Shown here one piece after another: positions 19,812 through 60,964 of a DNA stretch of 64,000 nucleotides. The notes below the pieces were generated by a model that had not been told where the DNA came from, did no database searches, and saw only the letters and a list, made by a program, of their open reading frames with translations. The stretch covers positions 26,718-90,717 of the forward strand of contig CAYGTV010000003.1 in NCBI GenBank assembly GCA_964353135.1. The letters run 5' to 3'. The position numbers and the translations under genes were made by a program. Origin of the DNA: an uncultured Candidatus Saccharibacteria bacterium. Its GTDB lineage: Bacteria; Patescibacteriota; Minisyncoccia; Phycocordibacterales; UBA918. Position 1 is the stretch's first letter. Each line of letters begins with the position of its first letter.

Positions 19812-19817
19812 ACATAA

Positions 19818-20897: not shown

Positions 20898-20921
20898 AGG
20901 TAACAAAGTGTGGACAACTAT

Positions 20922-22130: not shown

Positions 22131-22133
22131 ATG

Positions 22134-23204: not shown

Positions 23205-23206
23205 AT

Positions 23207-23590
23207 CTAATTTTTACTACCAATAATGTCCGAAACCTGTTTTACTACATCCGAAGGGATCGCTTCTGCCTTTATTATATATCCATCTGCTCCGACTGAT
23301 TCTGCTTCTGCTATGTCTGAGTCTTGTCCTTGATTTGAAAGCACAATGCATTTTGCTTTCATTTTTGGAAAAGATTCTTTGATCTCTTTGATCAGTTCGA
23401 TTCCGCCAATACCAGGCATGACCATATCAAGCAGTATTACATCAAAGTCTGGGGACTGCTGAATCAGCGTTAGTGCCTGATGTCCAGTTTCAGCAACCTG
23501 TACGTCGAAGTTTGAGTCACCGAATTTGATTGCGTACATATCACGCAAAAACGCATCATCATCAACTAGCAAGAGCTTTTTGATCTTCAT
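23207..23590 (-). CDS. Single-domain response regulator (CheY/PilH-like receiver) embedded in the pilus cluster.
   Basis: LLVDDDAFLRDMY...DVILLDMVMPG...K; 127 aa; overlaps the pilB stop. Confidence 0.75.
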   Translation of the reverse strand: MKIKKLLLVDDDAFLRDMYAIKFGDSNFDVQVAETGHQALTLIQQSPDFDVILLDMVMPGIGGIELIKEIKESFPKMKAKCIVLSNQGQDSDIAEAESVGADGYIIKAEAIPSDVVKQVSDIIGSKN

Positions 23591-25406
23591 TACTATCCAT
23601 TATAGCCTGATCTGGCTCTACCAAGGTTTGGTTATCGACACGATCTGGCAGTTCTTCTTCTAGGAGTTCATCAATACCAATCTGCGTACCAAACGTCATC
23701 ATTTCCTCGTGAGGAATCTCGTGGTTTAATGCTTTGATCATTGCGTCTTCTTGGATAGTTGTAAATCCGTTTTTTCTGGCCGCCGCTAGAAAGGCTTCTT
23801 CGGGAGCGCTTTTTAGGATCAGCTCCTGTATTTCTGGTGTAATTTCTAAGACCTCAGTGACCGCCGTACGACCACGGTACCCAGTTGAACAGCTAGGTGT
23901 CGGTTCTGGGTGCAACATTGTTGTCTTGTCTGGAATACGAGCGTGAAACTTTTCTGGTATCAAATTTTTAATATTTTTAATTCGGTCAAGAGTGGCGGAG
24001 TTAATTTCTTTCTCAATACCGGTCCCATCACAAAGTTTTTTAGACAACCGTTGAGCGATCGCCATTTTAAGGGTCGGTGCAATTAAATACGGGTCAACCC
24101 CCATATCAATCAAACGCGGAATCACTCCAATCGAGTTGTTGGTGTGAATAGTAGACAGCACTAAGTGACCTGTTAGAGCGGCCTGGATCGCCAACTGGGC
24201 GGTTTCTTTATCTCGAATCTCTCCCACCATAATGATGTCAGGATCCTGACGCAGAGCAGCTCGCAAGCCAGTTGCGAACGTATACCCAATTTCTGGACGC
24301 ACTTGCGACTGACTTACTCCTTCCAGGTTGTATTCGATCGGGTCCTCAAGCGACATTACATTTTCTGTCAGGGTGTCCACCTCCCCAATCATTCCACGCA
24401 ACGTTGTAGATTTACCAGACCCGGTTGGACCAGAGATGAGGATGATCCCATACGGCTCCTTGACGATCTTTTTGATAACATCAAGGTTATACTTTGATAT
24501 TCCACTATCTTCGAGAGTCAGCACTCCCTTTCCAGTGTCTAAAATACGCATTACTACCTTCTCACCGTGATTAGTTGGAAGTACGGAGACACGAAAGTCG
24601 ATTTTGCGTCCATCAAAGGTTGCCGAAAAACGTCCGTCTTGTGGCTTGCGCCGCTCATCTAGACGCATAGCTGAGAGAATTTTTACCCGGGCCACCACAG
24701 CCATGTGCACATTTTTAGGTAGTTCCAAACTTGTAGCAAGTCCACCATCGACTCTAAACCTGACCCCGACCTTTTGAGGGGTTGGTTCAATGTGAATGTC
24801 AGATGCTTGACCATCAACTGCGTATCGCAAAATAGTTGCCACAATTTTAGTGACCGGAGCATCTTCCTCAATATGGTCTACCGATTCACGATCTGATTCA
24901 CTGACCCCTTCTAGGCTGGCGGCAATTTCGGCGTCTAATTCCGACTCTAGGTTTTCAAGCGCACTGTCCACCTCCCCTTCAAGGTTGGCATAAAACTTGC
25001 TTACTTCTGCTATCTCAGAACTAAGCATAAACACCATGTGATACGGCATGTTGTTTTTAGTACTGATGAAATTGAGTGCTTCTCGCATTCGCAAGTCGTC
25101 AGGATTATTCACCCCGACAACCAGTACATCCTGCTCAATTTTCAGCGGTACAATTTGGTAATGAGTAGCCGCAGTTTCTGGGACCATGTTAAGCACCTGC
25201 TGGGACACCTTGAAGCCTTCCGGCAAAGTGAAGTGTTCAACTTCATAGAAGTTTGCAAAAAATTCTGCAATCTGTGTACCAGGGATACCTTCCGCTATCA
25301 GGAGTTCCTCGAGACTAACTCCCTCTTCTTGAAAACGCACTTGTAAAGCTGCGGCCTGCTCTGCAGTTACCAAAGAAGATTCTTTTAAAGCAGCAAAAGG
25401 ATCCAT
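23562..25406 (-). CDS. pilB: Type IV pilus assembly ATPase (GspE family).
   Basis: Walker A SGPTGSGKSTTL; Asp and His boxes; 614 aa. Confidence 0.9.
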   Translation of the reverse strand: MDPFAALKESSLVTAEQAAALQVRFQEEGVSLEELLIAEGIPGTQIAEFFANFYEVEHFTLPEGFKVSQQVLNMVPETAATHYQIVPLKIEQDVLVVGVNNPDDLRMREALNFISTKNNMPYHMVFMLSSEIAEVSKFYANLEGEVDSALENLESELDAEIAASLEGVSESDRESVDHIEEDAPVTKIVATILRYAVDGQASDIHIEPTPQKVGVRFRVDGGLATSLELPKNVHMAVVARVKILSAMRLDERRKPQDGRFSATFDGRKIDFRVSVLPTNHGEKVVMRILDTGKGVLTLEDSGISKYNLDVIKKIVKEPYGIILISGPTGSGKSTTLRGMIGEVDTLTENVMSLEDPIEYNLEGVSQSQVRPEIGYTFATGLRAALRQDPDIIMVGEIRDKETAQLAIQAALTGHLVLSTIHTNNSIGVIPRLIDMGVDPYLIAPTLKMAIAQRLSKKLCDGTGIEKEINSATLDRIKNIKNLIPEKFHARIPDKTTMLHPEPTPSCSTGYRGRTAVTEVLEITPEIQELILKSAPEEAFLAAARKNGFTTIQEDAMIKALNHEIPHEEMMTFGTQIGIDELLEEELPDRVDNQTLVEPDQAIMDSNEDQKALAS

Positions 25407-25408
25407 AC

Positions 25409-25747
25409 CTATTGTGACACTGGTGTTGAATTAAACGATGGAGCAAACGGATTTGGTCGACCAACCTGGAAATCACTCGGTGGGGGTGAATACGATTTTA
25501 ATGAATTAAAAACTGGGTCATCAAATAACTCAGTATCCATTTGTATCTCAGAGAGAGTTCGGCTACGCTCGACAAACAGCTGGGACGATGACAGTAATTG
25601 CTGCAGCTGCTGATCAGATGGATTGGCGGTTAAAAACGGTGACGAATTCTGGGAAAAAAGAATATACCCAGCCACAGCTGTAATAACGATTCCTACCAAT
25701 ACAATTATGTTCGTGGTTGATTTATTCATATCAAAGTCATTATTCAA
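25409..25747 (-). CDS. Small membrane-anchored pilus assembly protein, possibly PilP-like.
   Basis: N-terminal transmembrane helix; C-terminal RPNPFAP motif; its position between pilO and pilB. Confidence 0.4.
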   Translation of the reverse strand: MNNDFDMNKSTTNIIVLVGIVITAVAGYILFSQNSSPFLTANPSDQQLQQLLSSSQLFVERSRTLSEIQMDTELFDDPVFNSLKSYSPPPSDFQVGRPNPFAPSFNSTPVSQ

Positions 25748-26309
25748 TCTCTATCCCAGTACTGGTAACGTAGGTCACGATAACTGCATCTACTGACAGT
25801 GAGACCCCGTCTGCCCCAGTAACCTCTAGAGTATAAATTTGTAATGGATATTCGTTTTGCTCGAGCATGCTAAAGAAATCCTTTAGGCGGTTATAACTAC
25901 CGTCTACTGATACGGCAAACTCATGTCCCAGAGGGGCTTCATCTGTTTGAGAGAGACGTGCTGCCGGACTGCTGTCTATCTTTTTTCCATTGTATTGGAT
26001 TACTGTATAGTTCACCCCTGCATTTTGTGCGATGATTTCAATATCACGAAGCACAGCAACTTCATCAAGCAAGGCTGGCATGTAGGTCGCAAGTCTCTCA
26101 CGATCATTTACAGAAACTGACTCTAATTCAGACACCCGCGCGGCCAAAATACGGTTTGTTTCTGTAACTCGTTCTCGCTCAACTGTATATTCTTGTACTT
26201 GGGTTTGTAGTTCACCGATTTCTGCAAATGTTGGACGTACAACAAGTGATACGATTGCAATCGCTAAACCTATTGCGCCAATTTGTGAAATTAATCCAAG
26301 CGGTTTCAT
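25740..26309 (-). CDS. pilO: PilO-like pilus assembly protein.
   Basis: Signal anchor plus coiled coil; position after pilN. Confidence 0.55.
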   Translation of the reverse strand: MKPLGLISQIGAIGLAIAIVSLVVRPTFAEIGELQTQVQEYTVERERVTETNRILAARVSELESVSVNDRERLATYMPALLDEVAVLRDIEIIAQNAGVNYTVIQYNGKKIDSSPAARLSQTDEAPLGHEFAVSVDGSYNRLKDFFSMLEQNEYPLQIYTLEVTGADGVSLSVDAVIVTYVTSTGIEIE

Positions 26310-27100
26310 ATAGTAGTTTCGTTATCTTCTAGACGGTCTTCGTCAAGGGGAATAATCTCGTCCGATAGTGAGCTGGTATCTTCAAAATCTGGCTCAGTAT
26401 TTTCTGTTGTATCAACCTCTGGAATGTTTAATATATCAGCCGCGTCGCTTGATTGATACACCCCAATATCTGTCCGACGAGCCTCCAACGGATCATAGAG
26501 CGCAGCTGAAAGTGGAATCGAGAAATCAGCTATAAATGTAACCGCTGGTGGTGTAGCTACTCCTTCAGCCAATACAGCTTCTGCGCCGCTTTGAATATCA
26601 ACCTCTGAGATTGTAACGTCCGAGAATAGAGCGCTGTTTGCAGTCAAAACTTTACGCTGGAACAAAGCAGCATCGAGGGTTTCAGTAGAAAAGTTAATCG
26701 TTAGGATTAAACGTTGGTCTCCTTCTCGTTCTAGTGCAAGGTCGTTAATCTGGATCGGCTGCGCAGTGATCCTATCCATTTCATCTAAGACAGCTACGAT
26801 GGAAACCGTATTGTCGACGCGATCTTTTGCCTTTTCCAACGACTCATTAAACTCTTGGACTTGTTTAAAATCCTGGATACTGAATGTGTTTACGGCACCA
26901 TCAAGTAGGATGGCTTCGTTCTCGAGCTGGGAAATTGTATAGTTTTTGTAGAAATAAGTACCCCCCGCAGCCAGTAATGCTCCAAAGAGCATGCTGTACG
27001 CAACAATCGTAATCAGGAAAATCTTCCGTGTAGGTCTTGAGCTTTGACGCTTGGAGTTGCGCCTTTTTGGTATAAAAGAATTGTTTGAGGAACCTTGCAT
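26306..27100 (-). CDS. pilN: PilN-like pilus assembly protein.
   Basis: Basic N-terminus, single transmembrane helix, periplasmic domain; follows pilM. Confidence 0.55.
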   Translation of the reverse strand: MQGSSNNSFIPKRRNSKRQSSRPTRKIFLITIVAYSMLFGALLAAGGTYFYKNYTISQLENEAILLDGAVNTFSIQDFKQVQEFNESLEKAKDRVDNTVSIVAVLDEMDRITAQPIQINDLALEREGDQRLILTINFSTETLDAALFQRKVLTANSALFSDVTISEVDIQSGAEAVLAEGVATPPAVTFIADFSIPLSAALYDPLEARRTDIGVYQSSDAADILNIPEVDTTENTEPDFEDTSSLSDEIIPLDEDRLEDNETTI

Positions 27101-27162
27101 CGTACTAATAGTATACGCTTTGTTTTGAGGAGAAAATAAAGCAGTGTGGAAAGCTTTTATAG

Positions 27163-28227
27163 CTATTCAAAGTGCCGTAAAGCTGCCCCTAGGGCAGGTA
27201 CAAATGATGGTCCGATTTCTTTCATAGCGTCTTCCATAAAGGCTGGGTATGCAACGTTGGTAAACGGATTAATATACTCAGCCTGAATACCAACTGAATC
27301 TTGGATCATTTTGTTCAGTCCGCTATACAGACTCGCCCCGCCACACACGTGAATCGCGTCAATTTCAATATCGTGGGCTGCCTGATGATGATCAATCACT
27401 TGACGGAATTCGCGTAGTGCCCGTCCATACACTTTGCTATACACCCCCTTGAGGCTACCATACTCTGGACTATCGGCCGTGATTTGTATTTTGTTAAGCT
27501 CTGCAGTTTCAAAATCAGTCTCTTGTAGTTCGGCAAATTGCTGTGTCACTTGTGTTCCGCCTACATTGATACGATGCATCCGGTTAAGTACCCCCTCACT
27601 TGAGATATACATTTTGGCTGAAGATGCCCCAAAATCCATAATGATGGTATGGCCACTAGAAGGGATCGTTCGACTGGTACTAAAACACTCAATTTCGGTT
27701 GGAGAACCCTGCAGACCAACAAACTGCATCAGTACATTTAATCGTTCGATCGCTGTGTTTTGGATTGCCGCAATTAAAACTGGCCGACCAGTTTGTCCGG
27801 GAGGAGCCTCTAACTCTGCCCAATCGAGCGTCACCTCACTGAGTGAGGCTGGGATAATTTTTCGAGCCTCAATACGAACCTGTGCACTGAGGTCAGCATC
27901 AGGTCCGATATCAAGTGACGTAGTACTGATAAAGCTTGCTGATAGAGGCATCGCAAATACTGCCTGCCTGGCTTTGACTGCTGACTCGCGAATGACATCA
28001 ACCAGGGCTTCTTGTTCCTGTTTTGGACCTAGTTGAACTACCGCACCAAGCGCTTTTTCATCATATGGACCCAGTTGGATTTCGCCGTACGTAACCAGTG
28101 TTAACACCCCACCCTTCTCCTCAAGCTCTACCACTTTGATTGAAGATGATCCAATATCAATACCCAGCACGTTTGGTGCTGACTGTGTTGCTTGGACAGA
28201 TTTGATGAGGTTAGATAAAAGTCCCAT
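27163..28227 (-). CDS. pilM: PilM (actin-like ATPase).
   Basis: LGIDIGSSSIKVVEL N-terminal phosphate-1 motif; 354 aa. Confidence 0.8.
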   Translation of the reverse strand: MGLLSNLIKSVQATQSAPNVLGIDIGSSSIKVVELEEKGGVLTLVTYGEIQLGPYDEKALGAVVQLGPKQEQEALVDVIRESAVKARQAVFAMPLSASFISTTSLDIGPDADLSAQVRIEARKIIPASLSEVTLDWAELEAPPGQTGRPVLIAAIQNTAIERLNVLMQFVGLQGSPTEIECFSTSRTIPSSGHTIIMDFGASSAKMYISSEGVLNRMHRINVGGTQVTQQFAELQETDFETAELNKIQITADSPEYGSLKGVYSKVYGRALREFRQVIDHHQAAHDIEIDAIHVCGGASLYSGLNKMIQDSVGIQAEYINPFTNVAYPAFMEDAMKEIGPSFVPALGAALRHFE

Positions 28228-36078: not shown

Positions 36079-37611
36079 ATGATGTACGAGACCCTCAAAA
36101 CCCACTTCGGCTACGACAAATTCCGCCCGTTGCAGGAGGAAATTGTGACACGGGTGCTCGAGAAAGAAGACTGTCTGGTACTGATGCCCACCGGTGGCGG
36201 CAAGTCCCTGTGTTTTCAGCTGCCGACCCTGATGCAAGACGGCCTGACGATTGTTATTTCACCGCTTATTTCCCTGATGAAGGACCAGGTCGATGCGCTG
36301 CGCCAGAACGGTGTCAACGCCGCGTACCTCAATAGTTCACTCACCACCGACGAGAAAGTACAAATCCTACGCGACGTCACCGACGGCACCACCAAACTGT
36401 TGTACATCGCCCCCGAGCGACTGGGTGTCCCACAGTTTGCTGCCCTCCTGCACAAACTGCCGATTAGTTTATTTGCCATCGACGAGGCACACTGTATTTC
36501 CGAATGGGGTCATGACTTTCGACCTGACTACCGCAACCTGAACCAGCTACGGACCAACTTCCCCTCCATTCCCATCATTGCGCTGACCGCGACCGCTACC
36601 CAAAAAGTGCGCGACGACATCGTCAAACAGCTCGACCTCCCCAAGCCACACATTTTCACCTCCAGCTTTAACCGCGATAACCTCAGCTACGAAGTGTTAC
36701 CGAAAAAAGAATCGTTTGGGACTATCCTGTCTTTGATCGAATTACACAGAGAAGAAAGCGTCATCATCTACTGCTTCTCCCGCAAAGATACCGAGAGCTT
36801 GGCTAAGAAATTAAATGACCAGGGACACAACGCCGGCACGTACCACGCCGGACTGACCGCCGATCAGCGCCGCGAGAACCAGGACAAATTCATCCGGGAC
36901 GAGATCCACATCATGGTCGCGACGATCGCGTTTGGCATGGGGATCGACAAACCCGACGTGCGCCTGGTGATCCACCACAGCCTCCCCAAATCAATCGAAG
37001 GCTACTACCAGGAAACCGGCCGCGCTGGCCGAGACGGACTCCCCTCCCGTTGTGTGTTGCTGTTTTCAGTCGCGGACAAATTCAAACAAGACTTCTTCAT
37101 CAGCCAAATCAGCGACCCCGAAGAAAAACGCCAAGCGCAACACAACCTCGACCAAACCCTCGACTATGGCCGACTCGATTCCTGCCGCCGCAAATTCCTC
37201 TTGCAGTATTTCAACGAAGACTACACCACCGATAACTGCCAAAATTGCGACCGGTGTATAGAATTCGAGGCCGTGGTGCCAGCCAAAACCACCACAAAAA
37301 CTCAGGCGTCCCACGCCGTCAGCACTCCCGGTTATTCGTACCTCGCTGAACGTGACGGACACACCAACAACGCCTCGGATACAGACTATGACACCGACCT
37401 CTTCGACATCCTCAAGCAACTCCGCCTCCGCGAAGCCAAACGCCTAGGCGTCGCCCCCTACATCGTCTTTGGCGACAAAGCCCTGCGCGGCATGTGTGTC
37501 ACCAAACCAACGACCAAAGCAGCCTTCCTAAAAATCAACGGCGTCGGCGACAAAAAGCTAAAGAAATTCGGCAAGAAGTTTATGGACGCGATTAAGGAGT
37601 ATGAGGGGTAA
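36079..37611 (+). CDS. recQ: ATP-dependent DNA helicase RecQ (helicase + RQC zinc module + HRDC).
   Basis: Walker A MPTGGGKS, DEAH (AIDEAHCISEWGHDFR), Zn module CRRKFLLQYF...CQNCDRC, HRDC tail (LFDILKQLRLREAKRLGVAPYIVF); 510 aa. Confidence 0.9.
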   Translation: MMYETLKTHFGYDKFRPLQEEIVTRVLEKEDCLVLMPTGGGKSLCFQLPTLMQDGLTIVISPLISLMKDQVDALRQNGVNAAYLNSSLTTDEKVQILRDVTDGTTKLLYIAPERLGVPQFAALLHKLPISLFAIDEAHCISEWGHDFRPDYRNLNQLRTNFPSIPIIALTATATQKVRDDIVKQLDLPKPHIFTSSFNRDNLSYEVLPKKESFGTILSLIELHREESVIIYCFSRKDTESLAKKLNDQGHNAGTYHAGLTADQRRENQDKFIRDEIHIMVATIAFGMGIDKPDVRLVIHHSLPKSIEGYYQETGRAGRDGLPSRCVLLFSVADKFKQDFFISQISDPEEKRQAQHNLDQTLDYGRLDSCRRKFLLQYFNEDYTTDNCQNCDRCIEFEAVVPAKTTTKTQASHAVSTPGYSYLAERDGHTNNASDTDYDTDLFDILKQLRLREAKRLGVAPYIVFGDKALRGMCVTKPTTKAAFLKINGVGDKKLKKFGKKFMDAIKEYEG

Positions 37612-37656: not shown

Positions 37657-39384
37657 CTATTCGAGAAAATCTATAATTTCTTTGAAATTGTCTTTTGTCT
37701 CCTGGTCAATGAAATTTTCATCTTGGTTACATTTATCATAAAAATGCTTCGCAAAAATAAATTTACTGATCTGCTCAACATTTGCAACCATATTTTTATC
37801 AGGTAGAAATTCTTTCTCATAATCTGAAAGAATCGAAGTCACAATATTTACAGACAAGAAATCCTCTATACCCTTTTTTCCATCTGGCTTTAAGACTGTG
37901 TTCTTATACAAAAGATCTTCTGCATCACCAAAAAAGTTTTTCTTTATTTTATTTGCAGCCTTAGTTCCTTGAGAATCATCATCAACTAACACTTTTGCAT
38001 CAATACCCCAGCCATAAAGAATAGCGAATATATTCGGACACTGATCAACACCATTTGACGGAATCACTGAACACCCCTCTTCCAAAATAGGTTTCAAATA
38101 AAAATATTCTGTTATTCCTTCTACAATTAATGTCTTTTTGCTATTAAAAGGATCTGTTAAGGTCACAAGACCTAGTGCTGATTTAATTGGAGCGAGTGAA
38201 TCAAGAGATCCATTAGATGTAACTAGTGCAGAAATTGATTTGAACAGTGAACCTTTGTCATTTCTGTCAACAAGTAGCAGACGCGAAAAATCAACATTTT
38301 CTTTTCCCAATAAAATAGGTTGGTGTGTACTATAGATAATTTGTATACCAGAGTTTTTTGCCAATTCTTCTATAACATCTTTAACGTCTTGCTGTGCGAT
38401 CTCATGAAGACCTTGACCAGGTTCATCAATTAACAAAATTAAACCTCTAGAATCGAGCTCAACCTCATGTGCGCGTAATCTCAAATTAAAACCAGTAAAC
38501 CAGCGAAAACCTTGAGATTTTTGTGATATACGTAGCGGTTTTTCCTCCCCCTGACTTATGAAAAAATTTACTGTTGAGTTTTCACTATTACCCTCCTGGT
38601 GATTTATTTTTATATTATATTTATAATCAACTTGCTCATTTGATATAACCTGGTTCCAATATCCATTCAACGACTCAGCCGCCTGCCTCTCGACTCTCTG
38701 CTCTTCACTAGCTCTTTTTTGGTCGGATGTACTTGGACTCATCAACTCGGCAAAATCGATCTTGTACACTGTTTCAAAATCTCGAATCGCCTGATTGGTG
38801 TTTACTTCACTCTTAGTTGCCTTGCCGGGAAGATTATTTTCGGTAAATGAAGAATAAAAAACCATGGTTGGTCTCATTTTAGAAAAATACGTGTATGGCG
38901 AAAAAGCTTCAATTTCCACCATCTCTCCCTCTGAAGCTTCCTCACCTTCTGGTAACTCATTTAGCGACTTGTCATATTCTGCAACCAACTTTTTTAGTTC
39001 TTGAAAATTTATCCAGCTAAAACTATCAAAATCATCTTCGTCAGTTTCGCCCCTGACGAAAGTGAATCCATTTTTTCTTACACAGTCTGCAATATCGTTA
39101 TTGGTATCCTCCTTTAGTTTTTGGTATTCAGAGTCATTTAGGTAAAAAGTGCAATCAACCCTTGGATGCTCATCCATTCTCCTATCTTCATCTTCAAATG
39201 AGTCATATGACCCCTCTTCAAAGAATTTTAATGCGCTTAAAAAAGAAGTTTTTCCGGACTCATTCTGTCCAGCCAAAACAGTAATCAAATCACCTTTCGA
39301 TAAGTGAACCCATCCTGTATCTTGAATTGATTTAAAATTTTGTATTCTGACCTTGCCGAGTACCATAAACCAAAGTATACCCAC
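37657..39384 (-). CDS. OLD-family nuclease (N-terminal ABC/AAA_15 ATPase + C-terminal Toprim).
   Basis: Walker A LAGQNESGKTSFLSAL; Walker B/D-loop LLIDEPGQGLHE; Toprim TLIVEGITEYFYL ... VLVDDDSQG; 575 aa. Confidence 0.8.
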   Translation of the reverse strand: MGILWFMVLGKVRIQNFKSIQDTGWVHLSKGDLITVLAGQNESGKTSFLSALKFFEEGSYDSFEDEDRRMDEHPRVDCTFYLNDSEYQKLKEDTNNDIADCVRKNGFTFVRGETDEDDFDSFSWINFQELKKLVAEYDKSLNELPEGEEASEGEMVEIEAFSPYTYFSKMRPTMVFYSSFTENNLPGKATKSEVNTNQAIRDFETVYKIDFAELMSPSTSDQKRASEEQRVERQAAESLNGYWNQVISNEQVDYKYNIKINHQEGNSENSTVNFFISQGEEKPLRISQKSQGFRWFTGFNLRLRAHEVELDSRGLILLIDEPGQGLHEIAQQDVKDVIEELAKNSGIQIIYSTHQPILLGKENVDFSRLLLVDRNDKGSLFKSISALVTSNGSLDSLAPIKSALGLVTLTDPFNSKKTLIVEGITEYFYLKPILEEGCSVIPSNGVDQCPNIFAILYGWGIDAKVLVDDDSQGTKAANKIKKNFFGDAEDLLYKNTVLKPDGKKGIEDFLSVNIVTSILSDYEKEFLPDKNMVANVEQISKFIFAKHFYDKCNQDENFIDQETKDNFKEIIDFLE

Positions 39385-39401: not shown

Positions 39402-39710
39402 TTAGAAATCAAGCATCTTCTTAAAAGCTCTAGCAATTTTAATTGCATCAGTCTCTACAATTCTGTTTGGAATATGGATAGTATGGAAGCCATCTTCAGT
39501 GGAGTAAGCGTCTCTTTTAAAATCATCGGCCATCTGTATATGATCAGTGTAGTGGTTTGGCCCATCTACTTCTATATAAATTTTTCCCTTGGGAATATAG
39601 ATGTCAATATGCTTATGTTTGTCATAATACTCAAGCTTTGTTTCAACACCAACTGAATTCAGAGCCTCATTAAGCATGGCTGCATGCTTGGTTGGTTTTG
39701 ATTTATACAT
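39402..39710 (-). CDS. DUF559 / Vsr-like (PD-(D/E)xK fold) small protein, 17 nt upstream of the OLD gene and co-directional with it.
   Basis: IDIYIPKGKIYIEVDGPNHY...DDFKRDAYSTEDGFHTIHI matches the DUF559 core (E.DG..H ... R...L...G). Confidence 0.55.
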   Translation of the reverse strand: MYKSKPTKHAAMLNEALNSVGVETKLEYYDKHKHIDIYIPKGKIYIEVDGPNHYTDHIQMADDFKRDAYSTEDGFHTIHIPNRIVETDAIKIARAFKKMLDF

Positions 39711-39760
39711 CCAAACATTGTATCAAAAACTAGTATCATCCTGACTTAGATTGTCATCAC

Positions 39761-39835
39761 CGAATTTAAACACCCAAAAATAACCAAAAAAGCCCAAGGT
39801 CAGTACCTCGAACTTTTGAATGAGTTTATTGCAAC
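39761..39835 (+). repeat. Conserved intergenic element, copy 1 of 6.
   Basis: cacccaaaaataaccaaaaaagcccaaggtcagtacctcgaacttttgaatgagtttattg. Confidence 0.8.
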
Positions 39836-39907
39836 AGATTGATTTTCTGACATAAATATGGCTTTATACAGTTAGAAAAGTAACCAATTCGGCTAAAAGG
39901 ATTCGCC

Positions 39908-40336
39908 ATGAACCGTGAACTTGAAACGAGCGACCCAACTAAAGACGTTCCGCAAAAACCGAAACCAGATTTGTTTTGTACATTTTGCGGCAAAAGCCGG
40001 CACGAAGTAGATAAGCTCATCGCTGGACCTGTGTGCTACATCTGTGACGAATGCGTTGATTTGTGTAGATCAATCTTGTACAAGCCACCTGAGACACCCA
40101 GTATAGCGATGGACTTTGACTTGCTCCATGCGTTTCCTGAGAGCTTTCGTTTCTCTGGCGCAGTCACAATTCTCAAGCGCGATTCTCTTGATACGAAGAT
40201 TAGTGAGAGGTATGTGAATTTTTATAACCTGACTGCAGCAGAACTTACTGTGTTTGTCTCAAATCATTCAGTCGGGTTTAACACCCACGCCACAAAAATA
40301 AACCTCTGTGATATACATCCAGAGACGACAAGATAA
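39908..40336 (+). CDS. Orphan protein with N-terminal ClpX-type C4 zinc ribbon and an unknown C-terminal domain.
   Basis: [32 protein letters not shown] matches the ClpX Zn-binding domain; no AAA+ domain. Confidence 0.55.
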
Positions 40337-40413
40337 CTGTGGTAATCAAAACAAAAAACCGGACCTTGAAACAGGCCCGGTTTTTGCATTATCAAAAACA
40401 AAGGCGTCATCAG

Positions 40414-40487
40414 TGAATTCGCCCACCCAAAATAACCAAAAAAGCCCAAGGTCAGTACCTGGGACTTTTGCATGGGTTTATTATGCC
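40414..40487 (+). repeat. Conserved intergenic element, copy 2.
   Basis: cccacccaaaataaccaaaaaagcccaaggtcagtacctgggacttttgcatgggtttattatg. Confidence 0.8.
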
Positions 40488-40503
40488 TAGTTAGAGAAAC
40501 TGA

Positions 40504-41424
40504 CTAAGCTACAAAATTGTCGATGTTGGCTTTGGTAAGTTTTAGTGCTCGTCCACGGTTTTCTTTGGTAAAGAAACCGGTGTGGGGAGTTACGTAAAAG
40601 TTTGGTAAGGCTAGAAATTTTTCTTTGCACTCTTTCCATTCTTCTGACTGATTTACGTCTGACCAACATTTTACGTCTACCCTCTCAACCAGAAAATCAT
40701 ACAGCTCGTTAATTTTTAGGACTTCAAATGTTCCCGGAATAAGAATTACACCGTCCTGGTTGAGGTTGACTAGATAGTCTTTCCCAAAACTATCTCGGGT
40801 TTCCAGTGTAATAGCAGACGTAATTGCCAACACATCTGTGTCTGTAGTTAGTTCTGCAACCGGTACAGATTGATACTCCACGTCTTTCTCATTTTGGCTG
40901 GCGTATTTTATAGACGCTCCAAAGAAGCTGCAAATTTCTGCAAACCTAGTACCGATTGAACCAAGTCCAAAGATCCCTACATTTTTAGAAGCAATTTCAC
41001 TTCCTTTAAAACCAGCAAAACTTTCACCACCTTCTTTTGCATACGTCATTGCTTCTGGAGTTTGGCGGATAAGGTTCAGGAGCATGTTGAGCATCAGTTC
41101 GCTAACACCATCGGTTGCCTGACCGTTGATGTTATCGATTGTAATATTGTTTTCTTTCAAAAATTCAAGATCAATCATCGACATACCAGTCCAATCGATA
41201 GCAATGTATTTTAATGTGTCCAAATCATAGTATTCGTTTTTGAAATCATCAAACACTCCTACTAGAAAGAAATCGACCCCCTTGAGATGATCAGCTGTGA
41301 GAACATTCTGATAATCGTCAGTTGCAGTGATAGTCGTCACCTCTTCGGCGTATTGTTGTGCCATTGTGGTCAGATCGTCAGACCCTTCAAATTCGTATAC
41401 CAACGCTTTCTTAAATGGTTTCAT
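40504..41424 (-). CDS. D-isomer-specific 2-hydroxyacid dehydrogenase family protein.
   Basis: NAD-binding GIFGLGSIGTRFAE; start moved to MKPFKK (41424) so the gene does not overlap element copy 3. Confidence 0.75.
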   Translation of the reverse strand: MKPFKKALVYEFEGSDDLTTMAQQYAEEVTTITATDDYQNVLTADHLKGVDFFLVGVFDDFKNEYYDLDTLKYIAIDWTGMSMIDLEFLKENNITIDNINGQATDGVSELMLNMLLNLIRQTPEAMTYAKEGGESFAGFKGSEIASKNVGIFGLGSIGTRFAEICSFFGASIKYASQNEKDVEYQSVPVAELTTDTDVLAITSAITLETRDSFGKDYLVNLNQDGVILIPGTFEVLKINELYDFLVERVDVKCWSDVNQSEEWKECKEKFLALPNFYVTPHTGFFTKENRGRALKLTKANIDNFVA

Positions 41425-41430
41425 ATTTTC

Positions 41431-41490
41431 CAGTATACCAAAAAAGCCCAAGGTCAGTACCTCGAACTTTTGAATGAGTTTATTGTGATG
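41431..41490 (+). repeat. Conserved intergenic element, copy 3.
   Basis: accaaaaaagcccaaggtcagtacctcgaacttttgaatgagtttattgtgatgg. Confidence 0.8.
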
Positions 41491-41496
41491 GAGTAA

Positions 41497-41922
41497 TTAT
41501 GACCAATCTGACAACTCAATTGGTTCACCTGACAAAATCAGCGGGAGTTTCTCATCTGGGATGATGCGGACTTTAAACTCGTTTGCACCTGCACTATGCA
41601 GTTTTACCAACCGGTGAAGACCATCGAGAATCATGTATTTACCGTGATTAAAATAAACGTCAATCGGATACGAAGTATCCGCCTGATCTACAGCCAACTG
41701 CTCTTTGCTGGTTCCCTCTTCTTTTTCTAGTACTTCGCGTGGAGTTACGGTATATCGCTCGCCATTGTCATGCTCCCAAAACGGACAATCCAAGTGCCAT
41801 TCTAGGTCAGCGAATGTAAGTGTGGTTACCGGCAGATCAACCGCCCACAATTTCTCCTCCTCCCAGTTACCGAAGTCAAGACCAACGGTGTTCCAATCAA
41901 ACTCTTTCGGGTCTTGTTTCAT
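41497..41922 (-). CDS. ParB/sulfiredoxin-like nuclease domain protein.
   Basis: KYMILDGLHRLVKL matches the ParB-N (DGxHR) core; 141 aa. Confidence 0.45.
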   Translation of the reverse strand: MKQDPKEFDWNTVGLDFGNWEEEKLWAVDLPVTTLTFADLEWHLDCPFWEHDNGERYTVTPREVLEKEEGTSKEQLAVDQADTSYPIDVYFNHGKYMILDGLHRLVKLHSAGANEFKVRIIPDEKLPLILSGEPIELSDWS

Positions 41923-41928
41923 ACAATT

Positions 41929-42483
41929 TTAATTAGCTGACAGCTCCCAAACTTTCTCAGGAACCCACTTACCATCTACTTTCTTTAGGACTGCAATATT
42001 GTCGAATTGCAGTTTCATATCTAGCTCCGGCAGTGTATGCAGGTAGTCCCACGTTTCTTTGAAATCAAACGGTTTGAGTGCTGCCATTGCGACAGTAGCG
42101 TGCAAGTCTCCTTCTATTTCATCATACTCGTCGAACGTCATTCCTTCTATATCGCGCATTGCGGTCATCACCGCACTAACTGTATCCAGCATTTTCTGCG
42201 ACGGTTCAACATCTACAAAAATAACCCCTTCACCAAAGTGGTTGTATCCGTGCAAACGATACGGACTTTGTTTATGCGTTTCAATAATTTTTTCTATTGC
42301 TGCATAAACAGCCTGTACCCCAACTTCATCAAGTTCAAACCAACGTTTGATAGTTAGATGTGGAACAACACGATCATGCACCGGAAACGCATCAAGTTTT
42401 TCTACCAGACTGCGAGTGATATTTTCATGTGCTTCTTTTGCTTCACCACGTATGAGGTGAACAATAATTCTTCGGTTATCCAT
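41929..42483 (-). CDS. 2H phosphoesterase superfamily protein (LigT / 2'-5' RNA ligase-like).
   Basis: Two H-x-T/S-x motifs (PHLTIK ... LHATVAM) at the expected spacing; 184 aa. Confidence 0.6.
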   Translation of the reverse strand: MDNRRIIVHLIRGEAKEAHENITRSLVEKLDAFPVHDRVVPHLTIKRWFELDEVGVQAVYAAIEKIIETHKQSPYRLHGYNHFGEGVIFVDVEPSQKMLDTVSAVMTAMRDIEGMTFDEYDEIEGDLHATVAMAALKPFDFKETWDYLHTLPELDMKLQFDNIAVLKKVDGKWVPEKVWELSAN

Positions 42484-42506
42484 TGTCTATGAGTATAGCA
42501 ATGATT

Positions 42507-42577
42507 CAACCACCCAAAAATCACAGCGAAAGTCTAATGTCAGTACTTCGGGCTTTTGCATGAGTTTTTTATTGCGG
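42507..42577 (+). repeat. Conserved intergenic element, copy 4 (diverged).
   Basis: caaccacccaaaaatcacagcgaaagtctaatgtcagtacttcgggcttttgcatgagttttttattgcgg. Confidence 0.7.
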
Positions 42578-42610
42578 TTAAGTAATAAACTCTTGCGATA
42601 TAATACAGAC

Positions 42611-43210
42611 ATGATGAGTAAACTATACAAAGGAGAAAAATCTTCTATTTTGTCGGCTTTGACATTTAATGATGGTGCATTTTGGGGTGCGGATATGTTT
42701 GCCGGAGTAGTGTTTGCACTTTATATAACCCAAAATATTCCCGGCGGGTCTGCCATCCATGTTGGTCTTGTATTTGGACTATATCGACTAATTCGTGCAA
42801 TTACTGCAATTCCTATTGGTCGTTTTTTAGACAAACATCGTGGACACTTGGATGAATACTACACCCTAATGACCGCTGGCGGTATTACCGGATTGGTATA
42901 CATTACACTTTTCTTTGCAACCGAATTGTGGCATGTGTACCTTGGTATCAGCTTTATCGCAATTGGTCACGCGTTAAATATTGGAGCGTGGAATGTATTA
43001 TTTTATGGAAATGTTTCAGAAGAAATACGCGGGCAAGCAATTGGTACGTACCAAATGTTTACGCAAATTATTTATGGATTAGCAATCATAATCGCCGGTT
43101 TCGTCGGAGAAATATTTGGATTTGAATGGACATTACTTTTTGCTGGCATAGTCACTCTGTTGAGCAGCCTCATTATGTGGTTTATATACGGAAGCAGAAA
43201 TAAGATGTAA
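42611..43210 (+). CDS. Half-size MFS-like membrane protein (six transmembrane helices); possibly a fragment.
   Basis: Resembles the C-terminal six-helix half of an MFS permease; start at ATGATG (42611) preceded by TATAAT. Confidence 0.45.
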   Translation: MMSKLYKGEKSSILSALTFNDGAFWGADMFAGVVFALYITQNIPGGSAIHVGLVFGLYRLIRAITAIPIGRFLDKHRGHLDEYYTLMTAGGITGLVYITLFFATELWHVYLGISFIAIGHALNIGAWNVLFYGNVSEEIRGQAIGTYQMFTQIIYGLAIIIAGFVGEIFGFEWTLLFAGIVTLLSSLIMWFIYGSRNKM

Positions 43211-43220
43211 ATATAGGATC

Positions 43221-43279
43221 ACCACACCAAAAAGCCCCGGGTCAGTACTTAGGGCTTTTACATGTGTTTATTGCGAGGA
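43221..43279 (+). repeat. Conserved intergenic element, copy 5 (best hairpin).
   Basis: caccacaccaaaaagccccgggtcagtacttagggcttttacatgtgtttattgcgagg; stem aaaagccc/gggctttt. Confidence 0.8.
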
Positions 43280-43290
43280 ATCAATTCTAG

Positions 43291-44628
43291 CTACACTAGA
43301 TGTTTTCGATATGCAAACACCAGCAACACTCCAAACCCAAAAACAAGAAAGCCAAATATAAGCGGTGCGGTCACCCCAAAACTAGCTGCAATTAGCCCAG
43401 CAAAAATTGATGGCAGGGCTTGACCAAGTGACTGCACACTAGCGTCGACTCCAAGTGCAGCTCCCTGGCTTTCTTTGTTGGCTTTGGCTGATACTACCGC
43501 TGTGACCGCTGTCCTCCCTACTGCGTTTGCGGCCGCAAAGAACACTATGATGAGCAGCAGCTCCCAGGTATTAGTACTCAGTGCAATCAAGAGCAAGGTG
43601 ACAGCTAGTGTGGCAAACGAAATATACAAAAGATTTACTTTTTGTACGAATTTATCGGCAAGTGGAACTAAGAGAACCTGAAACGGGATAATCAGAAAGC
43701 CAACATAGAAAAAGAAGAAACCAATTTGACTTTGACTATATCCCAGCCGACTGACCAAATATACTCCCAAGAAACTGGTAAACAAAGTAAAGCCAAAAGA
43801 GTAGACAAACGATAGTGAATATATACCTCTGGTTGCTGTGTTTGAAAACGCTCGCCCAATATTTCGCACCGCTCGAGCTGGCCTGATTTCGATAGTTGTG
43901 TCCATTGGTGATGTCTCGGGAAGAAACATATAAATAAACACCACATTCAAAAGAGATAAGATTCCTGAAATAACAAACACAAATGGCGCGCCAAAGAATG
44001 GCAGAATACTTGGATCAGAAAGTACCCCACCCAGCAACGGACCAAACATAAATCCAAACCCGAGTGAAGCACCAACTAAACCAAAGTTCTTGGCCCGGTC
44101 TTTTGGTTCAGAGATATCAGCCGCTACGGCTTGAGCAATCGCAATCGAACCACCGGTAATTCCGTCAAACAGACGAGCACCAAACAAGATACCTAAGCTA
44201 GCCACGAGAGCACCAAACGCAAATACAAAATTAGAAAGTCCTGTGCCTAAAATCGCTAGTCCTAAAATTAACCGCCGACCGTACCGGTCAGACAATTGTC
44301 CAAAAATTGGATTGGCAAAAAATTGACCAAAGGTATAAATAGCGAACAGCAACCCAAGCAAAATATATTGCATCTGTTGCGTCGTGTCTGGCGAGAGCAC
44401 ATAGATACTTGAATTTGGTTCGGTAAACATCAGCGGCAGTATAGGTATCACCAACGAAAAACCGATTACTTCAATAAAGACCGTCGCGCAAATCAGGTAG
44501 ATCGTATTGTTAGTTTTTCTCAAGACTGCAGTATAGCAAAATAGACAGAAAACGTACTGTTTTGAATCAGCAGTAACGGGTTTGACTAGCAAACACACTC
44601 TTTCACAACCGATATATACAAAAACCAA
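43291..44628 (-). CDS. MFS transporter (drug:H+ antiporter-like).
   Basis: Motif A GQLSDRYGRRLIL; about 12 transmembrane helices; 445 aa. Confidence 0.8.
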   Translation of the reverse strand: MVFVYIGCERVCLLVKPVTADSKQYVFCLFCYTAVLRKTNNTIYLICATVFIEVIGFSLVIPILPLMFTEPNSSIYVLSPDTTQQMQYILLGLLFAIYTFGQFFANPIFGQLSDRYGRRLILGLAILGTGLSNFVFAFGALVASLGILFGARLFDGITGGSIAIAQAVAADISEPKDRAKNFGLVGASLGFGFMFGPLLGGVLSDPSILPFFGAPFVFVISGILSLLNVVFIYMFLPETSPMDTTIEIRPARAVRNIGRAFSNTATRGIYSLSFVYSFGFTLFTSFLGVYLVSRLGYSQSQIGFFFFYVGFLIIPFQVLLVPLADKFVQKVNLLYISFATLAVTLLLIALSTNTWELLLIIVFFAAANAVGRTAVTAVVSAKANKESQGAALGVDASVQSLGQALPSIFAGLIAASFGVTAPLIFGFLVFGFGVLLVFAYRKHLV

Positions 44629-44668
44629 AAGTCAGCACCTTGAGCTTTTATATAGATTTATTGCGGTT
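44621..44668 (+). repeat. Conserved intergenic element, copy 6.
   Basis: caaaaaccaaaagtcagcaccttgagcttttatatagatttattgcgg. Confidence 0.7.
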
Positions 44669-44676: not shown

Positions 44677-45075
44677 CTACAAACAGCCTCTTCCGCGGAA
44701 TATTTCAGTGGCACTTGGTGTGTCACCGGCTTTGATTTCTTCTACCCGCGCGGCGCCGATGGCTTCGATAAAGCAGGCTTCTTGATCAGGGGTAATTTGC
44801 GAGGGCAAGCTAGCTGGATCAATCCCAAACGTTTCAAGTGCGGCTTCCTGACCAGCGTTTAACATTGGGTTGCTGTCAGCCGGTGCGCTAGCTGACTGAT
44901 TGGCAGGTTCACCAATTGCTGCTTCCCCGCTAGTAACAGTGCTTATAGTTTCTTGCATCGTTGTACCCGAACCACCTTGGAACGAGACATATAGCAGTAC
45001 TCCACCCAGGGCAATTAAAATACACAGGAAGATAACCCCGAGTCCGACGAAAAATATAGTTAGCGTTTTTTTCAT
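44677..45075 (-). CDS. Small secreted/anchored protein, hypothetical.
   Basis: Signal anchor MKKTLTIFFVGLGVIFLCILIALGG; 132 aa. Confidence 0.35.
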   Translation of the reverse strand: MKKTLTIFFVGLGVIFLCILIALGGVLLYVSFQGGSGTTMQETISTVTSGEAAIGEPANQSASAPADSNPMLNAGQEAALETFGIDPASLPSQITPDQEACFIEAIGAARVEEIKAGDTPSATEIFRGRGCL

Positions 45076-45109: not shown

Positions 45110-45409
45110 CTATTTGAAAAATTCCCACACCACGTACACCGTCGCGAGGTTTTGCAAAATCAGTAGTGGAATCCCGATTTTGAAATACCATTTTTTGGTT
45201 TTGTGTCGAAAGGCCAGCATGCCAAGGTATACCCCAACACTACCAAACACCGTTGCCATAAAAAACATTCTCCCTTCGGAAATGCGCTGGACATTGTGCC
45301 CGCGAGTAGACCGACGTTTGTCATTCCACATGACTAGAAACGCCCAGAGGTTGACTAGTGCTAGAACTGCAACTAGTACCTGCCCAGTTGGTGTAGCTAG
45401 TAGCTGCAT
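45110..45409 (-). CDS. DUF1294 membrane protein.
   Basis: ...WNDKRRSTRGHNVQRISEGRMFFMATVFGSVGVYLGMLAFRHKTKKWYF matches the DUF1294 pattern. Confidence 0.55.
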   Translation of the reverse strand: MQLLATPTGQVLVAVLALVNLWAFLVMWNDKRRSTRGHNVQRISEGRMFFMATVFGSVGVYLGMLAFRHKTKKWYFKIGIPLLILQNLATVYVVWEFFK

Positions 45410-57936: not shown

Positions 57937-58000
57937 ATTATAAGTACTACACGATCTTTTGAAAAAAATTTCAATTTTGAAGAGAAAATTTATATTTGAT

Positions 58001-58035
58001 GCAGGCAGTGTGGGACAAAATCAGAACTATTTTAT
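58001..58035. repeat. 35-bp motif gcaggcagtgtgggacaaaatcagaactatttt, copy 1.
   Basis: Matches 60641-60675 at 30 of 35 positions. Confidence 0.6.
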
Positions 58036-58123
58036 CTAGGTACTTCTTCATGAAAATAATTGGTCTCACTCTACTTCAAAATCTTTCATTTCACGTACTT
58101 GCTCTATGGCTGCGGCTGCGACG

Positions 58124-60558: not shown

Positions 60559-60640
60559 AGTCTGAGTATATCAAAGTTCGAATCTCTTACTCTCGCGCTC
60601 GCACAAACGAAAAAAGTCTTTCGGACTTGTTTCGGTGCTC

Positions 60641-60675
60641 GCGGGCAGTGTGGGACGAAATACGAACTATTTTGA
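60641..60675. repeat. 35-bp motif gcgggcagtgtgggacgaaatacgaactatttt, copy 2.
   Basis: See 58001..58035. Confidence 0.6.
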
Positions 60676-60678
60676 CAT

Positions 60679-60710
60679 AAAAAACCCCGAACCATTGCTG
60701 ATTCGGGGCG
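60679..60710 (-). terminator. Terminator for the tRNA-Ser transcript, about 165 nt past the tRNA 3' end.
   Basis: Minus strand cgccccgaa-tcagcaatgg-ttcggggtttttt. Confidence 0.6.
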
Positions 60711-60877
60711 TGTCGTCTTATTTCTACTCATGCTATCGCCTTCTGACACATCTGGGCTATAGTTAACTGCATGAGGGGCAATATCAAGATGTCGCACGTT
60801 ACGACATACCGCGCTGCTACCACACGTTTACTCGGCTACCAATAAGATAGCACATTTAATTAAATTGTCAATAGATG

Positions 60878-60964
60878 CGGAGAGTAAGGGATTCGAACCC
60901 TTGGAACCCGTAAAGGCTCGGCAGTTTAGTAAACTGCTGCTTTCGACCACTCAGCCAACTCTCC
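60878..60964 (-). tRNA. Class II tRNA, Ser-like (discriminator G, long variable arm) with apparent anticodon ACT (unusual).
   Basis: Reverse complement GGAGAGT-TG-GCT-GAGTGGTCGAA-AGC-A-GCAGT-TTACTAA-ACTGC-CGAGCCTTTACGGGTTCC-AAGGG-TTCGAAT-CCCTT-ACTCTCC-G. The anticodon arm is a perfect 17-nt palindrome. Confidence 0.6.

Follow-up and report, generated by a model that had tools for sequence, protein, structure and literature searches.

Relic ends of a nuclease gene as the probable joints of a strain-variable cassette array in Patescibacteria

Sedentary integron arrays and clusters of attC sites lacking integron-integrases (CALINs) combine mostly single-gene cassettes, none encoding a recombinase, with imperfectly palindromic repeats of 50–130 bp that lie on the same strand and resemble each other within an array. 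Xer modules, namely integrative mobile elements exploiting Xer (IMEXs) at dif and the pdif modules of Acinetobacter, have no integrase either: their sites consist of two ~11-bp arms around a 6–8-bp centre, and a housekeeping recombinase moves them. Bacteria of the candidate phyla radiation (CPR, Patescibacteria) have tiny genomes with few recognisable mobile elements and, to our knowledge, the way in which they gain accessory genes for defence, transport and metabolism is poorly understood. In Streptococcus thermophilus, elements related to ICESt1 and ICESt3 accrete in tandem at the 3′ end of their target gene, fda (PMC5704250). Tycheposons, which carry tyrosine recombinases and replication modules and target tRNA and tmRNA genes, seed the genomic islands of Prochlorococcus (bioRxiv 10.1101/2020.12.28.424599). 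Here we describe a compact cassette array from an uncultured Candidatus Saccharibacteria bacterium, found in a 64,000-nt stretch of contig CAYGTV010000003.1 (hereafter, the window). Its cassettes are delimited by six copies of a short repeat that very probably derive from the 3′ end of a 159-aa gene, for which we use the working name gene X, and relatives of this CPR bacterium possess empty and differently filled versions of the same site.

A repeat search of the window returned a single family, the six members of which are direct repeats on the plus strand spaced by 652, 1002, 1086, 702 and 1390 nt (Table 1), which can be aligned over about 60–100 columns. An earlier note on this DNA had described six elements in the same orientation, restricted to this part of the 64 kb, and both statements hold: repeat search, alignment and a hidden Markov model (HMM) agree on the former, and a pattern scan together with the HMM on the latter. 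The core pattern GTCAGYACYTNNRNCTTTT matches six times in the 64 kb at ≤2 mismatches, against 0.26 matches expected from shuffles. The HMM of the copies recovers all six at E-values from 7e-15 to 2e-21, with no further significant match anywhere in the 64 kb. Chance is not an explanation for the six copies. The length of ~50–75 bp proposed earlier applies to most of them, but two prove longer when aligned to gene X, and the full unit measures about 105 nt once all copies are aligned. Scans against Pfam and NCBIfam also bore out the list of genes lying between the copies in mixed orientations. The rule of one copy per intergenic space has a single exception, the 6-nt gap between the genes for a 141-aa protein and a 2H phosphoesterase, which the note itself had counted as one cassette.

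Translated on the plus strand, the copies contain an open frame that reads ...KKAQGQYLELLNEFIAVK (in its longer form, ...IKNKGVISEFKHPKITKKAQGQYLELLNEFIAVK) up to a stop codon, the position of which is conserved among copies while TAA and TAG alternate. In related loci that we compared with the window (designated by L-numbers), namely L021/L025, L028, L050, L054 and L061, a copy forms the true C-terminus of a full-length gene of ~159 codons, gene X; further copies downstream in those loci are truncated, with 1–24 codons remaining upstream of a QY motif. The gene X product is an Hjc-like nuclease of the PD-(D/E)xK type, 159 aa long. Its 295 homologues are mostly metagenomic, and the few with a named source are labelled as Patescibacteria group bacteria or, in Joint Genome Institute (JGI) data, as 'Holliday junction resolvase-like'; no family in Pfam, NCBIfam or PADLOC matches it. 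The copies in the window map solely to nucleotides 372–480 of gene X, and no other portion of the gene is present in the window. The element is not a free-standing intergenic hairpin. Instead, the six elements very probably represent relic copies of the last ~50–108 nt of gene X and constitute the joints of a strain-variable cassette array inserted at its 3′ end. Because the joints can be read as relic gene ends, the insertion order and relative age of cassettes become visible in the sequence.

The individual copies differ considerably in how well they have been preserved. Copy 1, the frame of which reads IVITEFKHPKITKKAQGQYLELLNEFIATD followed by a stop codon, is 88–94% identical to the 3′ ends of gene X in relatives and probably represents what is left, in situ, of the resident gene. 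A segment of 2.1 kb, carrying genes for an OLD-family ATPase/TOPRIM nuclease and a DUF559 protein, lies between the end of recQ and nucleotide 390 of gene X. As this segment occupies the place of the gene X body, the resident gene has lost that body, and the array is therefore orphaned and headless. Copy 2 is frameshifted (82–87% identity to gene X), copy 3 is 92–96% identical to gene X and shares 49 identical nucleotides with copy 1, and copies 4 and 6 show 75–82% identity, copy 6 (GTCAGCAC) being the most diverged. There is thus a gradient of decay, from 82–96% identity to gene X in the proximal copies 1–3 to 73–82% in the distal copies 4–6.

Every relic found includes the core, none exceeds ~108 nt, and no detached left or right parts of the element were found. 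Although non-coding, relics may show 87–93% conservation, compared with 74% for adjacent cassette genes. In intact gene X, identity at synonymous codons rises from about 0.55 in the middle of the gene to 0.74–0.81 in the last 20 codons. Two other readings of the copies were rejected. The possibility that full-length gene X was repeated in tandem and later truncated was dropped because no relic is longer than ~108 nt. A small protein encoded on the minus strand was dismissed as well, since indels between copies break its frame and most copies have no start codon for it.

The ancestral order of the locus, as judged from the compared sequences, is recQ, gene X and a convergent DUF1294 gene. In L028, L076 and L089 recQ lies next to gene X, and recQ of the window is 84–90% identical to recQ of L025, L028 and L076, where gene X follows directly or nearly so. 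Two loci, L079 and L081, are empty sites in which the gene X stop codon lies 4–10 nt from that of DUF1294; unoccupied L081 carries the same core sequence as the window copies. Occupied sites are diverse. In L025, intact gene X is followed by four cassettes (DUF2726, 287-aa, 172-aa and one more, in this order), with a copy between each cassette and the next, giving three relics behind the intact head. L061 and L076 also have intact gene X at the head, with one relic each; in L076 a single methyltransferase cassette is followed by a 24-nt relic that corresponds to the core alone (AAAAGCCCAAGGTCAGTACCTCGA). L064 retains just ~105 nt of gene X, and in L091/L092, where both recQ and gene X are gone, relics persist of gene X (two) and of recQ (one, of 141 nt).

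Cassettes also change neighbors, and the copies are where this happens. From gene X through the DUF2726 cassette to the left arm of the copy behind it, L061 can be aligned with L025; beyond this point it matches the right side of the fourth copy of L025 and the cassette that follows. Because the two alignments overlap solely within the shared core, the difference between these loci corresponds to an indel of two cassettes with breakpoints inside copies. The DUF2726 cassette has the same left and right arms in L025, L061 and L020, a metagenome-assembled genome (MAG) of Candidatus Pacebacteria, and a different right-hand neighbor in all three. A copy precedes the 141-aa gene in L020 as well as in the window, the cassettes on the left of the gene being different, and the homologue of the 132-aa gene in L029 also follows a copy. 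This combination of conserved arms and changing neighbors indicates that copies are chimeric, the left arm going with the left cassette and the right arm with the right one. Comparison of strains, which the earlier note had recommended, thus revealed variable content (L020, L025, L061, L079 and L081). The empty sites, differing cassettes and breakpoints within copies also fit its suggestion of a hotspot where genes were inserted serially together with a recombination site.

The distribution of the element was assessed with the core pattern, which was used for one scan each of a species-genome and a metagenome collection. Among the 185,579 species genomes covered, the single true match was L020; the other 19 loci turned out to be lone chance matches, as separated by HMM score. 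Across both collections, where most matches were lone and due to chance, genuine HMM-scored copies are confined to about a dozen contigs, with four copies on one strand in L025, two in each of L020, L056, L061 and L062, and a single one in each of seven others. All collection copies with enough readable flank reside at the recQ/gene X/DUF1294 locus. The distant gene X loci L070, L082, L085 and L087 show neither the palindrome nor a relic copy, but they are too few for a test of association. As a separate observation, a gene for a large serine recombinase is found ~6 kb upstream of gene X in L070–L072 and L082, in a block with DUF2779, N6/N4 methylase and ZorA/MotA-like genes; these more distant loci, too, lack the palindrome in gene X as well as relic copies.

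How does the array relate to the described systems? Direct repeats of the target 3′ end, present in the window, L020, L025, L056/L091, L061 and L062, together with the intact head genes and empty sites described above, are features of tandem att-site accretion, but no cognate integrase was found at any array locus examined. We assign the array to no named family; it is a variant form of tandem att-site accretion, integron-like in its arrangement but not an integron, REP or MITE. With the accretion seen for integrative and conjugative elements (ICEs) as well as cis-mobilizable elements (CIMEs), it has in common repeats derived from a host-gene 3′ end, a restored head gene, integrase-less tandem units bounded by att-like sites, and empty sites. 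It differs in the size of its units (0.6–1.4 kb, one or two genes), in that no integrase-bearing partner was seen, and in its Patescibacteria host, its Hjc-like nuclease gene target and a site that appears to double as an antisense terminator. The tycheposon islands (bioRxiv 10.1101/2020.12.28.424599) resemble it in their streamlined genomes, in repeated integration at a single site by which older elements are pushed inward, and in partial target copies (there of tRNAs) left as relics. On the other hand, no recombinase was found here and the target is protein-coding, although a second type of array, described below, is linked to tRNA genes.

These likenesses raise the question of whether the cassettes could simply be the stumps of integrase-bearing elements (phages, islands or mobilizable elements) that targeted the 3′ end of gene X, accreted in tandem and decayed to one or two cargo genes. 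The direct repeats, the intact head gene, the empty sites and the stronger decay of distal copies are all in line with such a history, a pattern known from both CIME/ICE accretion (PMC5704250) and tycheposon islands. We nevertheless consider it improbable. Neither an integrase gene nor a fragment of one was found in about ten arrays and array fragments, and the core occurs in no phage or viral contig. Moreover, the units of 0.6–1.4 kb contain one or two intact genes and recur with different neighbors, so that it is the small unit that seems to move.

An array of integron cassettes without integrase, with the repeats acting as attC sites, is very unlikely, in spite of same-strand repeats of 50–100 bp with an imperfect palindrome, mostly single-gene units and no integrase nearby. 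What is repeated is a host gene's coding 3′ end, with its frame and stop codon, and inspection of the consensus by eye revealed no RYYYAAC...GTTRRRY boxes on either strand: the nearest strings, AAATAAC and GTTTATT on the plus strand and AATAAAC and GTTATTT on the minus strand, do not fit. Genes are in mixed orientation, and no IntI was found among 60 open reading frames (ORFs) of the window. In addition, the head site shares homology with every other site of an array, unlike attI with respect to attC. Mostly single-gene units, same-strand palindromic repeats and recombinase-less cassettes are shared with integrons and CALINs, whereas cassettes with apparent promoters and terminators of their own set the gene X array apart, and membership of the integrons, to which the earlier note had likened the pattern, is not supported. 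The gene X core has an 11-8-11 layout comparable to that of dif and pdif sites. By eye it does not resemble the dif consensus, and gene X sites have a single orientation whereas pdif sites alternate. Neither a switch in GC skew nor a Xer gene was found in the window.

The coding end of gene X also encompasses a hairpin with a 13-bp stem and a 4-nt loop (CAGT), the palindrome lying inside the stretch that encodes KKAQGQYLELL. The earlier note had described a hairpin core with a conserved loop. The hairpin is confirmed, and its centre, GTCAGTAC, is nearly invariant in the window (identical in five of the six copies, with a T>C change in the remaining one), but part of that centre belongs to the stem. 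The arms need correction as well, since the right arm of the family consensus is CTCGAAC and not GGGC. As DNA, the palindrome contains C·A mismatches that become G·U pairs in minus-strand RNA. Summed over 18 distinct copies, minus-strand pairing amounts to 207 of 234 positions and plus-strand pairing to 181 of 234, and the consensus minus-strand RNA forms a perfect 13-bp stem, all of it G·U-compatible, followed by a U-run (UUUUUUGG / UUUUUUGGUUAUUUUU). Single copies depart from this pattern to different degrees. In copy 5, 12/13 positions pair on the plus and 11/13 on the minus strand, copy 4 reaches just 9/13 on the minus strand, and the minus-strand RNA of copy 6 folds with z = −3.2.

The layout of a rho-independent terminator, that is, a hairpin and a U-run behind a gene on the same strand, is thus present on the minus strand, where a terminator scan matched the hairpins of copies 1 and 2. 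In copies 2, 3, 5 and 6 the hairpin lies 34, 25, 31 and 27 nt past the minus-strand stop codons of the dehydrogenase, 141-aa, full-length MFS transporter and 132-aa genes, respectively. For copies 1 and 4 there is no minus-strand gene whose transcript they could end, and copy 4 also has the poorest minus-strand pairing. In the empty sites DUF1294 ends a few bases from gene X, and its terminator must therefore lie inside gene X. From this geometry we infer that the element functions as an antisense intrinsic terminator embedded in a coding end. Copies may persist because the palindrome terminates convergent cassette genes on the minus strand. If so, the locus would provide an example of a coding sequence that doubles as a putative antisense terminator and survives, after loss of the gene, as a terminator module.

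Could the hairpin be all there is to the element, for instance a generic terminator, a small RNA, a repetitive extragenic palindrome (REP) or a miniature inverted-repeat transposable element (MITE) that spreads by itself? The minus-strand hairpin with its U-run would suit such an element, and so would the fact that relics are better conserved than some flanking genes. Yet REPs, MITEs and bacterial interspersed mosaic elements (BIMEs) are dispersed and occur in both orientations, whereas the six copies occupy one strand of one 5-kb stretch with no copies elsewhere in the 64 kb. The REP-like reading offered earlier fails on these grounds. Homology to a gene end with frame and stop codon, the restriction of collection copies to this locus and pairing that shows no covariation beyond chance also speak against a free-standing element, which we regard as hardly credible. 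A search of Rfam 15 gave no family at the gathering threshold, and an E-value threshold returned only sub-threshold matches at chance level. A promoter scan detected no convincing sigma-70 promoter inside the copies.

The relic gene ends at the cassette joints can be accommodated in a model of exchange at an att-like core, a reading that we favor overall with slightly better than even confidence. In the core, an 8-bp centre separates two 11-bp arms that are imperfect inverted repeats of each other, which gives an imperfect palindrome of 30 bp. In the model, each cassette would bring its own copy of the site, and cassettes would enter, leave or swap by reciprocal recombination across the shared ~30–45 bp core, AAAAGCCCAAG-GTCAGTAC-CTCGAACTTTT. 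Each insertion would restore the gene end and add one partial copy, while older copies would be pushed distally, where decay would follow. The putative recombinase would be unlinked to the array and act in trans, as for integron cassettes or cis-mobilizable elements. Site-specific exchange by such an enzyme has a chance that falls at or just short of even; both circular cassette intermediates and the site-specific nature of the exchange are inferred. The conserved centre plausibly signals sequence-specific recognition. Also in favor of such exchange are the layout of the core, which is that of a recombinase site, its presence in every relic, including the one in L076 that comprises nothing else, the upper limit of ~108 nt on relic length and, as signs of additional constraint at the DNA level, the rise in synonymous-codon identity in gene X and the conservation of the relics. 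Should the exchange be site-specific, the locus would serve as a platform for gene capture, integron-like but based on another kind of site and on an enzyme still to be found. The 30-bp core defines the site well enough for direct testing.

Several observations weigh against exchange at an att-like core. No match to Phage_integrase or Resolvase was found when 60 ORFs of the window were scanned against Pfam, in agreement with the earlier note that no integrase is present there, and no recombinase was found in L025 or in the gene lists of L091 and L093–L098. Searches of phage, plasmid and viral collections with a 107-nt consensus and a 20-nt core did not detect the core or reveal a donor. As the wider sample was collected by means of the core pattern, ascertainment accounts for part of the constancy that the centre shows outside the window. 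Copies differ in how far they reach to the left and to the right. Pairing in the aligned copies, which the earlier note had proposed to check for covariation, is no better than in shuffles (88.8% paired versus 88.3%). In L020 the 141-aa gene abuts DUF1294 directly, compared with 3.2 kb between them in the window, an indel that is not bounded by copies, and among the loci compared there is no near-identical genome pair with a cassette polymorphism at the gene X repeat. Finally, the 3′ end of recQ also leaves partial copies beside inserted genes: a ~110-nt duplicate with an 80-nt interruption flanks a GNAT cassette in L025 (5497–5675) and in L021, a 45-nt relic is present at about 770–815 (in the orientation of gene X) in L054, from which recQ itself is gone, and in L050, and the relic of 141 nt is located at 7227–7367 in L091. 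Folding in search of an antisense terminator found neither a palindrome nor an evident terminator at the 3′ end of recQ. That such an end leaves relics too suggests a less sequence-specific process.

Such a process might involve no dedicated system at all, but homologous and illegitimate recombination during natural transformation, with the conserved 3′ ends of gene X and recQ serving as one-sided anchors. An illegitimate joint formed a little upstream of the gene end by DNA arriving from this locus in other strains would duplicate 50–140 nt, RecA-mediated exchange would then delete or swap cassettes, and relics bearing a terminator would be selected. The recQ relics are of the same type at an unrelated sequence (L025/L021, L054/L050 and L091), no recombinase was found near any array examined, and the varying extents of the copies agree with this scheme. 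Relic lengths of 45–141 nt provide sufficient substrate for homologous exchange. Type IV pili are linked to DNA uptake in CPR bacteria, and a type IV pilus cluster is present in the window. However, the same palindromic core is found in every one of the ~20 relics, and the 24-nt relic in L076 is too short for RecA. Random joints should at times leave long stumps, but no relic exceeds ~108 nt, and gene X at the head of arrays always has a full reading frame. A recent exchange in the tRNA-linked array described next joined sequences sharing only a few bases, for which homologous recombination is an unlikely cause. We regard recombination without a dedicated system as less likely, but as a serious rival.

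The second type of repeat (AAAAGTTCGAACATCGTCCCATACAGCC) was reached through homologues of the 141-aa gene at L093–L098. The array there begins at tRNA-Gln and consists of about nine small genes on one strand (NUDIX, ASCH, GNAT, the 140-aa gene, CutA1-like, DUF1653, RelB-YafQ and others), each with a repeat of 31–45 nt, AAAAGTTCGAACATCGTCCCATACAGCCAGC, at or just past its stop codon. Repeats are located at 4548–8081 in L093 and 2635–3314 in L094; they are 65–88% identical to a reference copy and match the 3′ end of tRNA-Gln only loosely (63–65%). L093 and L094 share 99.99% identity across 8,434 nt but have unrelated sequences upstream, and the switch occurs exactly at the end of a repeat: in one an intact tRNA-Gln ending in ...CCCTGTCTGG is joined to CAGCAAGC, and in the other the repeat behind another cassette, ...CCCACACAGC, is joined to the same CAGCAAGC. 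The sequences have just a few bases in common across the joint, which makes homologous recombination unlikely here; the switch looks like a recent site-specific (or microhomology) event.

The window has its own pair of this second repeat (AAAATAGTTCGTATTTCGTCCCACACTGCC), at 57992–58037 and 60634–60678 on the minus strand beside tRNA-Ser, which brackets genes for an LD-carboxypeptidase, a 154-aa protein and a META-domain protein downstream of the tRNA. The finding of a second array type suggests that integrase-less cassette arrays with att-like repeats are recurrent in these genomes, and this parallel would favor, by analogy, an unlinked recombinase for the gene X array as well. Moreover, the 141-aa gene family occurs in both array types, suggesting that cassettes form a shared pool. 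It is therefore conceivable, though we put this forward only tentatively and think it rather unlikely, that Patescibacteria have a dedicated integron-like system of capture, with single-gene units, sites derived from host-gene 3′ ends (an Hjc-like nuclease gene in one array type, a tRNA-like site in the other), an unlinked recombinase and a shared cassette pool. More speculatively still, the Hjc-like nuclease at the head of the array might itself participate, by cleaving the palindrome that lies within the end of its gene.

Some minor features accompany the second repeat. Read on the minus strand, the core in the gene X repeat (AAAAGTTCGAGG..., 39788–39817) has its first 10 bases in common with those of the tRNA-linked repeat (AAAAGTTCGAAC..., 4552–4563 in L093), which may be due to chance or to a common recognition motif. 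A non-coding element of ~170 nt is common to the window (60680–60850, minus strand) and L093 (5730–5915), where it lies, cassette-like, between two array repeats. It has a strong terminator hairpin at its end, folds at −55 kcal/mol (z about −2), belongs to no Rfam family and can be considered a candidate structured RNA not described so far. The minus-strand sequence upstream of tRNA-Ser (60877–60964) contains a pair of 58-nt repeats with an AAGGAGG-like stretch (60977–61034 and 61141–61198, spacing 164 nt), and a duplicated 5′ start of tRNA-Ser (GGAGAGTTGGCTGAGTGG) at about 61125 is followed by unrelated sequence.

Within the window, the gene X array is flanked by conserved genes (Table 1). 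GC content is 0.37–0.42 across 37–44 kb, versus about 0.45 elsewhere in the window, and 0.37–0.41 at the OLD nuclease gene. The DUF559 gene, which has a weak PADLOC match to a methyl-directed restriction enzyme, entered together with the OLD gene. Among the cassettes, the first has its own terminator at 40354–40385 according to the terminator scan. The ORF of the second spans 40504–41451, with the ATG at 41424 taken as the likely start, and the true start of the fifth is probably near 44522. The ParB/SbnI-like match of the 141-aa protein is weak, and the match of the fifth cassette to the NCBIfam Tet(A/B/C) family falls under the curated cutoff.

Table 1. Repeat copies, cassettes and flanking genes of the gene X array in the window (MFS, major facilitator superfamily)
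Feature	Position	Strand	Remarks
recQ helicase gene	36079..37611	+	Pfam DEAD, Helicase_C, RecQ_Zn_bind, HRDC; conserved left flank
OLD-family ATPase/TOPRIM nuclease gene	37657..39384	-	Pfam AAA_15, OLD-like TOPRIM; PADLOC Old/AriA/GajA-like
DUF559 gene (Vsr-like endonuclease fold)	39402..39710	-	Pfam DUF559, E 3e-4
Copy 1	39752-39836	+	Gene X nt ~390-474 of 480; hairpin 39788-39817
Cassette 1: orphan ClpX-type zinc-finger protein	39908..40336	+	Pfam zf-C4_ClpX, E 1e-15
Copy 2	40387-40482	+	Gene X nt ~372-468; longest relic; hairpin 40440-40469
Cassette 2: D-2-hydroxyacid dehydrogenase	40504..41424	-	Pfam 2-Hacid_dh_C, 2-Hacid_dh; NCBIfam D-2-hydroxyacid dehydrogenase
Copy 3	41434-41496	+	Gene X nt ~421-480 including stop codon; hairpin 41442-41471
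Cassette 3: 141-aa protein and 2H (LigT-like) phosphoesterase	41497..42483	-	NCBIfam SbnI, E 8e-5; Pfam 2_5_RNA_ligase2
Copy 4	42504-42585	+	Gene X nt ~402-480; decayed, TTT insertion; hairpin 42528-42557
Cassette 4: half-size MFS transporter	42560..43210	+	Pfam MFS_1, profile positions 13-171 of 347
Copy 5	43226-43275	+	Gene X nt ~422-470; hairpin 43230-43259, between convergent genes
Cassette 5: full-length MFS (Tet-like) transporter	43291..44628	-	Pfam MFS_1, E 2e-51
Copy 6	44602-44667	+	Gene X nt ~417-473; hairpin 44620-44649
132-aa gene, last unit before right flank	44677..45075	-	No family match
DUF1294 gene, conserved right flank	45110..45409	-	Pfam DUF1294

Elsewhere in the window, the type IV pilus cluster (17077–28227) encodes three N-methyl pilin-like proteins, a prepilin peptidase, PilC (T2SSF), two T2SSE ATPases and PilM, and bears on how cassettes might arrive. 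A group I intron was detected at the Rfam gathering score (60 bits) at 11000–11262 on the minus strand. The ORF beside it (11382–12056) has resolvase-type helix-turn-helix (HTH) domains only, and is possibly an intron-associated or homing-endonuclease-like gene. Between tRNA-Thr and tRNA-Asp, a 31-nt direct repeat occurs at 4358–4388 and 4436–4466, the two copies being 90% identical and 78 nt apart.

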